A stretch of DNA of 8,174 bases, taken from the IMG/VR virus record IMGVR_UViG_2681813263_000010; one strand, 5' to 3'. Source of the DNA: a virus (lineage: Duplodnaviria > Heunggongvirae > Uroviricota > Caudoviricetes). Of this stretch, positions 3,091 to 7,228 are shown piece by piece; the stretch's first letter is position 1; each line of letters opens with the position of its first letter. Position numbers and translations under genes: made by a program. The notes below the pieces were generated by a model, which ran no database searches, was not told the DNA's origin, and saw only the letters and a list, made by a program, of their open reading frames with translations.

Positions 3091-3718
3091 NNNNNNNNNN
3101 NNNNNNNNNNNNNNNNNNNNNNNNNNNNNNNNNNNNNNNNNNNNNNNNNNNNNNNNNNNNNNNNNNNNNNNNNNNNNNNNNNNNNNNNNNNNNNNNNNNN
3201 NNNNNNNNNNNNNNNNNNNNNNNNNNNNNNNNNNNNNNNNNNNNNNNNNNNNNNNNNNNNNNNNNNNNNNNNNNNNNNNNNNNNNNNNNNNNNNNNNNNN
3301 NNNNNNNNNNNNNNNNNNNNNNNNNNNNNNNNNNNNNNNNNNNNNNNNNNNNNNNNNNNNNNNNNNNNNNNNNNNNNNNNNNNNNNNNNNNNNNNNNNNN
3401 NNNNNNNNNNNNNNNNNNNNNNNNNNNNNNNNNNNNNNNNNNNNNNNNNNNNNNNNNNNNNNNNNAACGTAATATTTTTTCTCCTGTAAGNNNNNNNNNN
3501 NNNNNNNNNNNNNNNNNNNNNNNNNNNNNNNNNNNNNNNNNNNNNNNNNNNNNNNNNNNNNNNNNNNNNNNNNNNNNNNNNNNNNNNNNNNNNNNNNNNN
3601 NNNNNNNNNNNNNNNNNNNNNNNNNNNNNNNNNNNNNNNNNNNNNNNNNNNNNNNNNNNNNAAAAGTAAATAGTGATGCTATTTCAAAGTGATTAGCAAT
3701 CTTATTAGAATTGGATGT

Positions 3719-4219
3719 ATGAAAAGAAAATCATTGTCAGACACCGACCTCAACGCCGCCAGAAGACTGAAAGAAATCTGGATGGCAAAGAAATCTCAGT
3801 TGGGATTGACTCAGGAACGTGCGGCGGAAATTATGGGGTTTTCAACACAAGGGGCGGTAAGTCACTACCTAAATGGTCAAACCCCACTAAACCTTGAGGC
3901 TGTTCTAAAGTTTGCTGGCTTACTGAAAGTTCCCCCTGAGTCAATCAGGCCAGACATGGTAGATTTGCTGCAAATTGCAAGGATGTATTGTCGAGAACCA
4001 CAGCAAGATAACATAGTCGCATTACCAGCAGACACAGAACAAACAGAGGATGAACTACCGTTTGCCGTAGAGCCGATGGAACGAGATTTAATCCATACGT
4101 TCAGAGCTTTTCCGAAAGAAGATCAAGAACACATGCTTCAGGAGATGAAAGATAAAAAAGAATCAATGGATCGTACGGTTGCGCGGTGGTTAGCTGCACA
4201 AAAAGGCCGTCGCGCCTAA
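3719..4219 (+). CDS. HTH (XRE/Cro-CI type) transcriptional regulator, PaaR-like regulator of the three-component TA operon; candidate immunity repressor
   Basis: ATG 3719 (MKRKSLSDTDLNAARRLKEIW...), 166 aa, stop TAA 4217-4219. HTH segment LTQERAAEIMGFSTQGAVSHYLNG. C-terminal motif DLIHTFRAFPKEDQEHMLQEM resembles the DicA C-terminal region as recalled. No peptidase S24 module. Track start GTG 3689 has no SD. Confidence 0.8.
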   Translation: MKRKSLSDTDLNAARRLKEIWMAKKSQLGLTQERAAEIMGFSTQGAVSHYLNGQTPLNLEAVLKFAGLLKVPPESIRPDMVDLLQIARMYCREPQQDNIVALPADTEQTEDELPFAVEPMERDLIHTFRAFPKEDQEHMLQEMKDKKESMDRTVARWLAAQKGRRA

Positions 4220-4238: not shown

Positions 4239-4433
4239 ATGAGTACAGTCCTTTCCCCAATGGTTTCAGAATTTGAGACAGTTGAGCAAGAAAATAGTTA
4301 CAACGAATGGCTGCGGGCCAAAGTAGCAGCAAGCCTCGCGGATCCCCGCCCGGCGATTCCGCATGATGAGGTAATGGCGGAAATGGAACAAATTATTGCC
4401 CAAATTGCTGCTGCAACTCACAGAGGTGAATNN
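4239..4433 (+). CDS. paaA: PaaA-family antitoxin (64 aa; stop codon partly masked)
   Basis: SD GAGGA 4225-4229, ATG 4239. N-terminal 45 aa (..LSPMVSEFET.EQENSYNEWLRAKVA.SLADPRPAIPHDEV) matches the PaaA2 antitoxin of E. coli O157 paaR2-paaA2-parE2 as I recall it; the C-terminal 19 aa differ. In-frame codon 4431-4433 is tNN, consistent with a stop. Confidence 0.8.
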
Positions 4434-4469
4434 NNNNNNNNNNNNNNNNNNNNNNNNNNNNNNNNNNNN

Positions 4470-4587
4470 TTATGGCTACCATCTGCTCGTGATGATTTGC
4501 GCCAGATCGTAGCCTACATAGCTAAAGAAAATCCCGCGGCAGCACGCAGAATGAAAATTCGAATTGAAACATCCGTTTTGCCGCTCA
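4470..4587 (+). CDS. parE: ParE/RelE-superfamily toxin, N-terminal part visible (start in gap 4432-4469, 3' part in gap 4588-4730)
   Basis: LWLPSARDDLRQIVAYIAKENPAAARRMKIRIETSVLPL fits the ParE N-terminal helical hairpin pattern (..A..DL..I..YIA..NP.AA......L......LP). Immediately downstream of the PaaA-like antitoxin. Confidence 0.7.
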
Positions 4588-4730
4588 NNNNNNNNNNNNN
4601 NNNNNNNNNNNNNNNNNNNNNNNNNNNNNNNNNNNNNNNNNNNNNNNNNNNNNNNNNNNNNNNNNNNNNNNNNNNNNNNNNNNNNNNNNNNNNNNNNNNN
4701 NNNNNNNNNNNNNNNNNNNNNNNNNNNNNN

Positions 4731-4931
4731 GTATCCCTTTCCTGGTTGCTGACAGGAAAAGAAGATAGCAATAGAGAGACACTTGATGATGATGAGAAAG
4801 CCCTGCTTGATGTTTACAGAAATCTGCCACCTGTAGAACGCAGAAATATGCTTGCAGCTTTTCAAATGCGACTTCAAAAACTGACTGAATTTTATTCAGA
4901 ATACGTTGACCCAGCAACGCGTCAAAAATAA
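4731..4931 (+). CDS. DicA-like HTH repressor, C-terminal 66 codons (N-terminus masked, or a 3' remnant)
   Basis: VSLSWLLTGKEDSNRETLDDDEKALLDVYRNLPPVERRNMLAAFQMRLQKLTEFYSEYVDPATRQK, stop TAA 4929-4931. WLLTG is the typical end of a Cro/CI-type HTH domain; the following motif parallels DicA (..ELLELFNALPESEQDTQLAEM..) as recalled. Position upstream of ydfA-ydfB matches dicA in Qin. Confidence 0.5.
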   Translation, partial: VSLSWLLTGKEDSNRETLDDDEKALLDVYRNLPPVERRNMLAAFQMRLQKLTEFYSEYVDPATRQK

Positions 4932-4953
4932 TTCTTTATTTTACAAAACAATA

Positions 4954-4975
4954 CCGCCGAAAGGCGGTTTTTTTT
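4954..4975 (+). terminator. rho-independent terminator
   Basis: Stem CCGCC (4954-4958), loop GAAA, stem GGCGG (4963-4967), then T8 (4968-4975), 23 bp after the DicA-like stop. An A-rich tract upstream could allow weak activity on the other strand. Confidence 0.8.
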
Positions 4976-4980
4976 GCCTT

Positions 4981-5025
4981 TTATGAATTCATAATGTTGA
5001 CATATGTTCATTTAAAGAGAACAAT
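4981..5025 (+). promoter_or_regulatory. 14-bp perfect palindrome (operator candidate) abutting a sigma70-like promoter for the ydfA-dicB operon
   Basis: TTATGAATTCATAA (4981-4994) is perfectly self-complementary. TTGACA at 4997-5002; 17 bp downstream AACAAT (5020-5025) is a weak -10. About 75 bp upstream of the ydfA ATG. Confidence 0.4.
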
Positions 5026-5098
5026 GTATTCCATCAAAGCACAACGGTGCGACAGGTTTTAGTTCCGCCACCCGGCGTTAAGGGGAAATGAGGTCAGC

Positions 5099-5254
5099 AT
5101 GGATACTATCGATCTTGGCAACAACGAATCTCTGGTATGTGGCGTGTTCCCCAACCAGGATGGAACGTTCACCGCCATGACTTATACCAAAAGCAAAACG
5201 TTTAAAACCGAAGCTGGCGCGCGTCGCTGGCTGGAAAGAAACTCAGGTGAGTGA
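5099..5254 (+). CDS. ydfA: YdfA-like small prophage protein (51 aa)
   Basis: SD GAGGT 5090-5094, ATG 5099, stop TGA 5252-5254. MDTIDLGNNESLVCGVFPNQDGTFTAMTYTKSKTFKTEAGARRWLERNSGE, recognised as Qin-prophage YdfA-like. Not in the ORF track (short). Confidence 0.85.
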   Translation: MDTIDLGNNESLVCGVFPNQDGTFTAMTYTKSKTFKTEAGARRWLERNSGE

Positions 5255-5255
5255 T

Positions 5256-5384
5256 ATGGATTTCGACACAATCATGGAAAAGGCTTACGAAGAATACTTC
5301 GAAGGCCTTGCCGAAGGCGAAGAAGCTCTCAGCTTCAGCGAATTTAAACAGGCGCTTTCCAGTTCGGCAAAATCTAACGGCTGA
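5256..5384 (+). CDS. ydfB: YdfB-like small prophage protein (42 aa)
   Basis: ATG 5256, one nt after the ydfA stop; SD GGTGA 5246-5250; stop TGA 5382-5384. MDFDTIMEKAYEEYFEGLAEGEEALSFSEFKQALSSSAKSNG. Confidence 0.85.
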   Translation: MDFDTIMEKAYEEYFEGLAEGEEALSFSEFKQALSSSAKSNG

Positions 5385-5412
5385 TAAGCGAAACAGCACG
5401 CGAGGAATCAGT

Positions 5413-5523
5413 ATGCAGAAACGAGAACCCGTCATCATCGCGCCAGACTATACCGATGATGAACTTTATGAGTGGATTTTGGCGGCATCAGTTTCATTGC
5501 TGGCTGATGTCCGCCCTTTTTAA
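5413..5523 (+). CDS. YdfC-like small ORF (36 aa); 3' end overlaps the DicF-like sRNA
   Basis: SD GAGGAA 5402-5407, ATG 5413, stop TAA 5521-5523. MQKREPVIIAPDYTDDELYEWILAASVSLLADVRPF; the N-terminus resembles YdfC as recalled. The ORF-track 5251..5523 entry is the same frame with a spurious upstream start overlapping ydfB. Confidence 0.5.
   Translation: MQKREPVIIAPDYTDDELYEWILAASVSLLADVRPF
5465..5521 (+). ncRNA. dicF: DicF-like small RNA (processed from the dicB-operon transcript) with 3' terminator hairpin
   Basis: tttatgagtggattttGGCGGcATCAGtttcattgctggCTGATgtCCGCCcttttt resembles K-12 DicF as recalled (UUUCUGGUGACGUUUGGCGGUAUCAGUUUUACUCCGUGACUGCUCUGCCGCCC). Stem GGCGG.ATCAG / CTGAT..CCGCC (5481-5515), U-run 5517-5521. 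Position after ydfC matches Qin. Confidence 0.6.
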
Positions 5524-5703
5524 AGTGAATTTTGTGATGCGGTGAATGCGGCTCAGCGCACGCGGAACAGTTAAAACAGTAAGGAAAATCCCTTATTCCG
5601 GCGTTAATTATTAACTGGTTAACGTCACCTGGAGGCACCAGGCACCGCATCAACAAAGTTCACTTCGGTGATGAAAGGAAAGAGAAAATGTTGAATGTAG
5701 CTA

Positions 5704-5732
5704 TTGAAAACCAGAACGGGTGGAATTATAGT
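5704..5732 (+). promoter_or_regulatory. candidate sigma70 promoter: TTGAAA-N17-TATAGT
   Basis: TTGAAA 5704-5709, 17-bp spacer, TATAGT 5727-5732. Lies inside the stop-free frame upstream of the Rha ATG, arguing that this stretch is leader rather than coding. Confidence 0.4.
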
Positions 5733-5794
5733 GCATCTGCACCTCATAAAACGGGGGCCGGGCGTGGAAACCCGAACGTTACTCGAGCGCATAG

Positions 5795-5815
5795 CCGCGC
5801 TGAAGCGGTTTTTTT
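5795..5815 (+). terminator. weak terminator-like hairpin plus U-run (possible attenuator or sRNA 3' end)
   Basis: CCGC (5795-5798), loop GCTGAA, GCGG (5805-5808), followed by T7 (5809-5815). Only a 4-bp stem; an alternative GCGC/GCGC pairing (5787-5790 with 5797-5800) is mutually exclusive with it. Confidence 0.35.
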
Positions 5816-5984
5816 ATGCGTAATGCACAGCTCCATTCAAATTATGGTGGGATGTGCAGGGCAGTCGCAAGACTGGCCGGGTTCTCGAGTGACCGGTATT
5901 TCCACCCCTGTACGTCTCACCACCCTTATGGTCGTGGAAAACCTCGGTGGTGAGTTAATTAACTTATCACTCGAGGATGCCATC

Positions 5985-6542
5985 ATGGCTACTATCCCTG
6001 CCCTTTCTCACCCTGACGTAACCATCGAAAATGGTCGCGCTGTCACTACGTCTATTGCGATCGCAGAGTTCTTTGGCAAGCGTCACGACAATGTGTTACG
6101 TGCCATCGCAAATACTGAATGCTCACCTGAATTTAACGCCCTCAATTTTGAGGACGTCACCTACACTGACGCCAAAGGCGAAAAACGCCCGATGTACCAA
6201 ATCACCAAAAACGGCTTCGTTTTCCTGGTGATGGGATTCACTGGCAAAAAAGCCGCTGCATTCAAAGAAGCCTACATTGCTGAGTTCGACCGCATGGAGG
6301 CCGAACTGCGCCAGAATAACACCCCACCCACTGACAAAATAATTCCAGGCGATGGCCGCACCCTGGTTGTTCACTTCGACGAACGCGGCAACATCAGATT
6401 CACCGAAACCGTTCCTGATGGCGCACGGGTCTGTACCATGGAGACTTTCCGGTTTTATCTGGAAGAACAGGGATGGACTCTTGTTAACCGGGGCGCAATT
6501 AAAAATATGACTGTAGAGCAATTACTCAAAATTCATTGTTGA
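5985..6542 (+). CDS. Rha-family phage regulatory protein (185 aa)
   Basis: SD GAGGA 5972-5976, ATG 5985, stop TGA 6540-6542. N-terminal domain ..ENGRAVTTSIAIAEFFGKRHDNVLRAI...DAKGEKRPMYQITKNGFVFLVMGFTGKKAAAFKEAYIAEFDRME matches the Rha (pRha) signature. Track ORF 5688..6542 is the same frame with an upstream extension judged non-coding. Confidence 0.8.
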   Translation: MATIPALSHPDVTIENGRAVTTSIAIAEFFGKRHDNVLRAIANTECSPEFNALNFEDVTYTDAKGEKRPMYQITKNGFVFLVMGFTGKKAAAFKEAYIAEFDRMEAELRQNNTPPTDKIIPGDGRTLVVHFDERGNIRFTETVPDGARVCTMETFRFYLEEQGWTLVNRGAIKNMTVEQLLKIHC

Positions 6543-6552
6543 GGACGCGATA

Positions 6553-6741
6553 ATGGAAACGTTATTACCAAACGTTAATACGACTGAAGGTTGTTTTGAA
6601 ATTGGTGTCACTATCAGTAACACGGTATTTACTGAAGATGCCATTAACAAGAGAAAACACGAACGGGAGCTATTAAATAAAATATGCATTGTTTCAATGC
6701 TGGCTCGTTTGCGTCTGATGCAAAAAGGATGCTGGCGATGA
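6553..6741 (+). CDS. dicB: DicB cell-division inhibitor (62 aa)
   Basis: SD GAGGA 6541-6545, ATG 6553, stop TGA 6739-6741. METLLPNVNTTEGCFEIGVTISNTVFTEDAINKRKHERELLNKICIVSMLARLRLMQKGCWR, near-identical in pattern to K-12 DicB as recalled. Confidence 0.9.
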   Translation: METLLPNVNTTEGCFEIGVTISNTVFTEDAINKRKHERELLNKICIVSMLARLRLMQKGCWR

Positions 6742-6929
6742 ATACAGCATTTGCACTCGTTCTGACCGTTATTCTTAATACGGGCGAACCAGCTGAACTG
6801 GTTACCGGAGTATACAACTCCATGAAAGAATGCGTGGCTGCTGCAGCTGAACAGAAAATTCCCGGTAACTGTTATCCGGTTGATAAAATCATTCACCAGG
6901 ATAATAAAGAAGTCCCGGCAGGTCTTTAA
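6738..6929 (+). CDS. ydfD: YdfD-like small protein (63 aa; family reported as lysis-associated)
   Basis: ATG 6738-6740 overlaps the dicB stop (ATGA); SD AAGGA 6724-6728; stop TAA 6927-6929. MNTAFALVLTVILNTGEPAELVTGVYNSMKECVAAAAEQKIPGNCYPVDKIIHQDNKEVPAGL. Hydrophobic N-terminal segment. Confidence 0.85.
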   Translation: MNTAFALVLTVILNTGEPAELVTGVYNSMKECVAAAAEQKIPGNCYPVDKIIHQDNKEVPAGL

Positions 6930-7228
6930 AGCANNNNNNNNNNNNNNNNNNNNNNNNNNNNNNNNNNNNNNNNNNNNNNNNNNNNNNNNNNNNNNNNNNN
7001 NNNNNNNNNNNNNNNNNNNNNNNNNNNNNNNNNNNNNNNNNNNNNNNNNNNNNNNNNNNNNNNNNNNNNNNNNNNNNNNNNNNNNNNNNNNNNNNNNNNN
7101 NNNNNNNNNNNNNNNNNNNNNNNNNNNNNNNNNNNNNNNNNNNNNNNNNNNNNNNNNNNNNNNNNNNNNNNNNNNNNNNNNNNNNNNNNNNNNNNNNNNN
7201 NNNNNNNNNNNNNNNNNNNNNNNNNNNN

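Follow-up and report, generated by a model that had tools for sequence, protein, structure and literature searches.

DicF is a 3'-UTR-derived small RNA (sRNA) processed by RNase E, and it was the founding example of sRNAs that arise by the mRNA-3'-end route (PMC9438474). In E. coli K-12 it is encoded (b1574) in the dicB operon of the Qin prophage, in a slot that follows ydfA-ydfB-ydfC and precedes dicB. According to Balasubramanian et al. 2016 (PMC5069750), DicF base-pairs with the ribosome binding site of ftsZ through its 3' region and with xylR and pykA through its 5' end; the two activities were separated by mutants, and DicF expression is toxic. Processing of the long dicF transcript by RNase III has also been reported (cited in PMC5069750 and PMC9438474). 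In the related cases of CpxQ, SroC and SdhX the sRNA comes after the stop codon, with a conserved seed (PMC9438474). Among prophage sRNAs, the PasD and STnc100 families share a structure or scaffold and carry diverged seeds (bioRxiv 10.64898/2026.05.13.724894). We also considered that preprint as an account of the dicF slot itself and found it unrelated, DicF not being mentioned there.

Layout of the dicF locus

The window, i.e., the whole 8,174-nt stretch of DNA analyzed here, contains six runs of N (1,407 bases: 1514-1898, 3091-3465, 3491-3661, 4432-4469, 4588-4730, and 6934-7228), which leave the locus under study untouched. The features relevant to the dicF slot and its flanks are as follows.

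4997-5025, plus strand: promoter-like site TTGACA-17-AACAAT (consensus scan, 10/12 matches; position relative to ydfA as in K-12)
5099-5254, plus strand: ydfA homologue, DUF1391 (Pfam PF07151, E = 1.2e-29; RefSeq annotation of matching loci)
5247-5384, plus strand: ydfB homologue (ORF list; RefSeq name of the matching gene)
5413-5523, plus strand: 36-codon fusion ORF, 22 codons derived from ydfC and 14 from the hairpin
5413-5477, plus strand: ydfC-derived segment, start codon to base 2 of codon 22 (comparison with K-12 and BLAST breakpoints)
5476-5478, plus strand: deletion joint within codon 22 (ATT here, ATG in K-12)
5478-5521, plus strand: remnant of the dicF slot, i.e., U-rich lead-in, hairpin and U-tract (fold, pattern scan and DicF covariance model)
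5524-5576, plus strand: conserved box downstream of dicF, kept in the window, its partner box being lost
5739-5815, plus strand: isrK-like RNA (Rfam at gathering threshold, 59.6 bits)
5840-5927, plus strand: C4 antisense RNA preceding a Rha-family gene (Rfam at gathering threshold, 76.7 bits)
6553-6741: full DicB homologue after the Rha gene (Pfam, 6.6e-38)
6684-6929: DUF1482 (YdfD-like) ORF after the Rha gene (Pfam)

The site at 4997-5025 is likely the counterpart of the dicB-operon promoter and would drive ydfA, ydfB and the truncated ydfC (ydfC'). The Rha-family gene was identified by Pfam (Phage_pRha). Since the DicB and DUF1482 genes are found after it, the isrK-C4-rha module has been inserted between the dicF slot and dicB and has not replaced dicB.

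The fusion ORF consists of 36 sense codons from the ATG at 5413 to the TAA at 5521-5523 (ORF list and direct reading; product MQKREPVIIAPDYTDDELYEWILAASVSLLADVRPF), and a Shine-Dalgarno (SD) sequence, GAGGA at 5402-5406, is located 7 nt before the ATG. The hairpin and U-tract (5481-5521) lie inside this frame, as the first-pass annotation had described, and the TAA takes in the final U of the U-tract. Homology to the 72-aa YdfC protein is limited to codons 1-22, so that no full-length YdfC product is encoded, and the 36-aa fusion product matched no family in a Pfam search.

A deletion joins ydfC codon 22 to the dicF slot

Positions 5091-5477 were collinear with K-12 ydfA, ydfB and ydfC codons 1-22 at 95.9% identity (BLAST, L002), and within this block 5413-5477 was identical to the 5' end of K-12 ydfC. 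From 5478 onward the window was collinear with K-12 starting at DicF nt 13 (TTTGGCGG...), and no sequence was found between the two blocks. T5477 can be assigned to either flank, which makes 1 nt the maximum microhomology at the joint. The missing DNA amounts to 506 bp by comparison with K-12 (L002 2389-2894), to 497 bp by comparison with RMDEC465 (L130 927-1423), and to about 946 bp by comparison with SE11. RMDEC465 is the closest undeleted relative of the whole module, and it has in common with the window the downstream variable segment and the Rha-dicB-DUF1482 genes. The 506 bp absent relative to K-12 consist of ydfC codons 23-72, the 340-nt leader between ydfC and dicF, and DicF nt 1-12, and the 5' cleavage site of K-12 DicF is located within the deleted DNA. 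The stretch GAGTGGAT, which precedes the joint, represents ydfC codons 20-22 and is coding DNA rather than a mutated DicF seed. The K-12 DicF sequence given in the first-pass annotation (ggtgacgtttggcgg) agreed with the K-12 genome, and the differences it pointed out in the 5' region and loop are real. It took the 5' difference for a set of substitutions, and the clean breakpoint seen against K-12, SE11 and RMDEC465 identifies it as a deletion joint instead.

The deleted leader carried a second conserved element. In K-12 a leader box (CGTGCGCTTCCGGTTGTG...) can pair with the box downstream of dicF, and this duplex is part of the minimum-energy fold; its energy of -32.4 kcal/mol was matched by 15 of 500 shuffles. 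The leader box was present as an exact match in 88 other fetched loci, and from the predicted fold it probably forms the 5' strand of an RNase III processing duplex, in keeping with the RNase III cleavage reported for the long transcript. A search for it across the window with up to 3 mismatches gave no match.

The hairpin is identical to a non-canonical dicF-slot allele

The hairpin at 5481-5515 contains 13 pairs, an 8-nt loop (UUCAUUGC) and one bulged base, and is followed by U5 at 5517-5521. Its folding energy was -21 kcal/mol (z = -3.4 vs. 200 dinucleotide shuffles), and the consensus/pattern scan classified it as terminator-like; a GC-rich stem-loop followed by a U-tract is what would be predicted of an intrinsic (Rho-independent) terminator. 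The 84 nt from 5477, comprising the hairpin and 40 nt downstream, were 100% identical to the dicF-slot allele of strains SE11, SLK172 and UMNF18, and at least 57 records matched this segment at 99% or better. We therefore rejected a K-12-type parent for the hairpin, and the view that it is an altered form of the K-12 hairpin gives way to identity with a separate allele. In SE11 and SLK172 the same hairpin stands after a full-length ydfC-type gene, a leader and a tail (...CCATGTTGATTACC-TTTTGGCGGC), with dicB downstream; that gene is called only "hypothetical protein", and in SE11 it is the same 219 nt as K-12 ydfC. The window has retained the hairpin of this allele (GGCGGCATCAGTTTCATTGCTGGCTGATGTCCGCC) and the conserved downstream box; the allele's own 5' tail (ATGTTGATTACC) and upstream leader are absent, with ydfC coding sequence in their place. 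In RefSeq the hairpin is unannotated in the SE11 and SLK172 loci and in nearly all other matches listed.

Relationship to DicF

In a permissive scan of 271 nt, the Rfam DicF model (RF00039) aligned over its full length (1-52) to 5467-5516 with 43.3 bits and E = 1.7e-8, a match that is clearly beyond chance. The homology to the dicF locus suggested at first pass, and the ydfC origin of the ORF, were thus supported by the covariance model and by synteny (ydfA and ydfB upstream, dicB and DUF1482 downstream). The Rfam check that had been proposed for the locus was positive in terms of a match, and fell short in that 43.3 bits does not reach the curated gathering score, 48 bits; for this reason a gathering-threshold Rfam scan of the whole window reported only isrK and C4 and no DicF. 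Canonical alleles scored 76.7-77 bits. The SE11-type parent allele scored 34.1 bits, also below threshold. The window outscores its own parent allele because the ydfC stretch partially resembles DicF (UUU.UG.GUG), a resemblance that is coincidental.

The remnant occupies the DicF position between ydfC and dicB, in the same order as in K-12, and has the 3' terminator hairpin and U-tract expected of DicF. It shares with K-12 DicF the stem base GGCGG...CCGCCC, the U5 tract and the next ~50 nt downstream. The upper stem and loop differ from those of K-12, and ACUCC, the stretch opposite the ftsZ SD sequence, is missing from them; the single-stranded 5' tail UUUCUGGUGACG, which pairs with xylR and pykA, is gone with the deletion of nt 1-12. 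The window hairpin lies inside an ORF, whereas that of K-12 is in the 3' UTR. Any RNA released at this locus would represent the end of a coding transcript that is next to its terminator, like CpxQ, SroC and SdhX; unlike in those cases, the terminator has the stop codon at its 3' edge, and seed conservation cannot be shown.

Predicted target pairing

We calculated cofold ensemble heterodimer binding energies against the K-12 ftsZ, xylR and pykA leaders. RNAduplex, which was tried without accessibility, returned long meaningless duplexes and was replaced by these ensemble energies. The values (kcal/mol) were as follows.

K-12 DicF: ftsZ -16.1, xylR -15.1, pykA -11.4
Window RNA: ftsZ -3.3, xylR -6.7, pykA -7.3
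SE11-type parent: ftsZ -4.0, xylR -4.3, pykA -2.8
L012, a natural chimera with the canonical tail and a foreign hairpin: ftsZ -7.3, xylR -15.1, pykA -10.5

The chimera keeps xylR and pykA pairing and drops on ftsZ, so the calculation reproduces the published two-seed model. All 60 of 60 shuffled controls bound ftsZ at least as well as the window RNA, which is a weak control since mononucleotide shuffles lose the hairpin and therefore bind better than structured sRNAs; the comparison between alleles is the informative one. We concluded that regulation of the validated DicF targets, ftsZ, xylR and pykA, is not predicted for the window RNA. The proposal that this copy might regulate a shifted set of targets found no support: the predicted pairing with all three collapses and the leader box is deleted. 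It had also assigned ftsZ pairing to the 5' region, which is contradicted by published work that places ftsZ pairing in the 3' region and assigns the 5' end to xylR and pykA (PMC5069750).

Polymorphism of the dicF slot

An IMG/VR scan with the conserved downstream box found at least 120 loci, which together with the window and four E. coli loci gave 125 matches listed. Among these listed matches, about two thirds carried canonical DicF and about one third were non-canonical (examples of slot alleles are L004 2488-2545, L130 1410-1465, L006, L031, L052, and L012, the IMG/VR loci being L006-L125). The non-canonical slots combine at least three types of 5' tail with at least four types of hairpin/loop, in varied pairings between conserved flanks. 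All 12 of the 12 representative non-canonical loci that were scanned scored below the Rfam DicF gathering score, and no strong predicted ftsZ pairing was found among the non-canonical alleles. It follows that functionally different RNAs may be lumped together when "DicF copies" are counted in pathogenic E. coli. The stem base, U-tract and downstream box were conserved in every slot allele, and all alleles fold into hairpins (-10 to -22 kcal/mol). RNAalifold on 15 alleles detected almost no covariation, the stem base being invariant and the upper stems unalignable. In the part of the literature covered, we found no published description of this polymorphism. The tail and hairpin alleles behave like the PasD and STnc100 families in having a common scaffold and divergent seeds; those families are at other loci, and the window copy differs in being a truncated derivative rather than a full alternative allele.

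Distribution of the junction allele

The junction allele is rare. Probes of 44 and 54 nt across the junction, for which megablast and word-11 blastn were concordant, found it in 8 of 5,426 complete E. coli genomes, at 12 places that were all 100% identical. It was present in two IMG/VR contigs, and no match was found among 50,697 phage records or in species-representative genomes (one per species). The exact 36-aa product occurs on 64 contigs (67 index blocks) of public E. coli assemblies; some sources name it "putative prophage protein". RefSeq/PGAP labels the 66-nt ydfC piece in matching loci "ydfC pseudogene, missing C-terminus".

In the prophages that carry the junction, an Ash/Rha gene always comes next, followed by YdaE or by DicB and DUF1482, and the junction stands behind at least three different immunity modules or prophage backgrounds. 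Over six loci, 5343-5553 was invariant, and ydfA, ydfB and the downstream spacer varied as a mosaic, a pattern that fits a single deletion event followed by spread through recombination among prophages. Given an invariant core found in at least three backgrounds and on 64 contigs, some retention or spread of the allele has occurred. The junction region shows no variation from which selection on the fusion could be judged.

Interpretation of the locus

We think it probable that the locus is a decayed dicF locus, in which the start of ydfC has been joined to a non-canonical hairpin, the DicF-type function has been lost, the hairpin serves as a terminator or attenuator and the ORF is a by-product. 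In a lambdoid prophage, an illegitimate deletion of ~0.5 kb fused codon 22 of ydfC to the U-rich lead-in at its first base. It took away the C-terminal 50 codons of ydfC, the entire ydfC-dicF leader with its conserved box, the 5' end generated by RNase E and the single-stranded 5' tail. The surviving GC-rich hairpin and U-tract would then terminate or attenuate transcription from the ydfA promoter, ahead of isrK-C4-rha-dicB-DUF1482. A terminator or attenuator role is suggested by the stem base, U-tract and downstream box that every slot allele keeps and by the ability of all alleles to fold, and the hairpin most likely acts only as the intrinsic terminator of the ydfA-ydfB-ydfC' transcript. 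As DicF is toxic, inactivating deletions would be expected in resident prophages. On this reading the case is one of ordinary prophage decay, not of a retargeted regulator.

Three observations stand against decay. The junction allele is no isolated case, being found in at least three prophage backgrounds with different immunity modules and invariant over 5343-5553 between variable flanks. The U-rich stretch and the terminator are intact, and these make up the Hfq-binding module in other sRNAs; the ydfC-derived 5' stretch UUUAUGAGUGGAUUUU also resembles DicF UUUCUGGUGACGUUU by chance. RNase E cuts at the motif RN/WUU (slash, cut), and the AAC/UUU before UUUAUGAGUGGAUUUU presumably fits it. This motif and the resemblance together mean that a 55-nt RNA could still be produced. 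A functional sRNA of the mRNA-3'-end type would require an RNase E cut within ydfC' (e.g., AAC/UUUAUG) to release an Hfq-binding RNA of ~55 nt, whose single-stranded tail, formerly coding sequence, would pair with a set of targets different from that of K-12 DicF. The hairpin, the U-tract and the upstream U-run would all serve such an RNA, the fused 5' stretch lifts the covariance score over that of the parent allele (43.3 vs. 34.1 bits), the allele persists in several prophage backgrounds, and natural shuffling of the tail and hairpin modules makes new combinations the norm in this slot; K-12 DicF is itself 3'-UTR-derived and processed by RNase E (PMC9438474). Yet the predictions show no gain, in that the window RNA pairs with ftsZ, xylR and pykA no better than the shuffled (weak) controls do, and the tail is in a putatively translated frame with a good SD sequence, where ribosomes would compete with processing as well as with pairing. 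The conserved leader box is deleted, the allele is rare (8/5,426 genomes), and the tail lacks the sequence variation that might reveal selection. On balance we regard a functional sRNA as unlikely. A specific form of it, an accidental bifunctional RNA in which the cut at AAC/UUUAUG gives a 55-nt Hfq-binding sRNA with UUUAUGAGUGGAUUUU as the seed on a non-canonical dicF-slot scaffold and with targets of its own, appears very improbable; if true, it would amount to a live case of a seed born through the shuffling of modules, at an sRNA locus that is hypervariable among prophages.

The ORF might be functional instead, either through a 36-aa microprotein or because translation of ydfC' melts the terminator, in which case the deletion would have created a translation-coupled attenuator and ribosome traffic would set the read-through into isrK-C4-rha-dicB. 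The SD sequence GAGGA and the ATG are inherited from ydfC, both hairpin arms lie inside the ORF with the stop in the U-tract, and the product is called a protein in some annotations. Amino-acid variants of its cluster are confined to the ydfC-derived part. The last 14 codons, however, come from a hairpin identical to non-coding copies elsewhere, which means that their sequence is set by the RNA and not by the protein; a random frame stays open over 14 codons with a chance of ~0.5, and the product has no Pfam match. Because the stop codon shares the last U of the U-tract, terminated transcripts would probably end without a stop codon and be handled by tmRNA. A functional ORF therefore seems to us quite unlikely, and we read the ORF as a by-product, the ydfC frame happening to remain open over the 14 codons of the hairpin. 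It is most improbable that the junction arose as an artefact of assembly or sequencing, through the joining of two repeated prophage segments. The locus is repeated within genomes, short-read contigs often break there and partial proteins end inside the hairpin, but the same junction with continuous flanks was found in 8 complete genomes (12 places), in NCTC long-read assemblies and in two IMG/VR contigs, and these independent complete assemblies exclude an artefact.

With decay as the preferred reading, the locus should be annotated as a ydfC pseudogene followed by an orphan dicF-type terminator, and neither as DicF nor as a retargeted DicF. The operon is a well-known one of prophages, and this derivative of it is rare and truncated; its ydfC part is already a pseudogene in RefSeq, and in itself it matters very little.

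Neighboring features

Downstream of the hairpin, the spacer at 5577-5610 is hypervariable and lies between two conserved boxes. It is wholly different among loci with identical junction and hairpin, and thus does not co-vary with the hairpin allele. It is followed at 5611-5642 by a conserved palindrome (GTTAACTGGTTAAC) and a small hairpin (CCTGGAGGCACCAGG); K-12, SE11 and the window all have both of them, shortly before the start of dicB or rha.

Upstream of the operon, a ParE/RelE-type toxin-antitoxin pair and an HTH fragment (4239-4931) are located between a repressor gene (3689-4219) and the ydfA promoter, both partly hidden by N runs. Other prophages with the junction have a HigB/HigA pair where the window has the ParE/RelE-type pair. 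A bidirectional terminator-like hairpin (ACCGCCGAAAGGCGGT) with a T-run is found at 4953-4968, directly before the promoter-like site at 4997-5025.

The Rha ORF as annotated (284 aa, window 5688-6542) starts at 5688, and its N-terminal Pfam "Phage_ASH" match (aa 14-109) coincides in position with two RNA genes identified by Rfam, which have the same orientation. The loop of C4 (CUCGAGUG) has its complement, CACUCGAG, at 5968-5975, overlapping the SD sequence of an internal ATG at 5985. Considering the Ash domain over RNA genes and the complementarity between C4 and the SD sequence, the true start of Rha is probably at 5985, and what is called the Ash "domain" may be no more than RNA genes read as protein, by analogy with the c4-icd-ant arrangement of phage P1.
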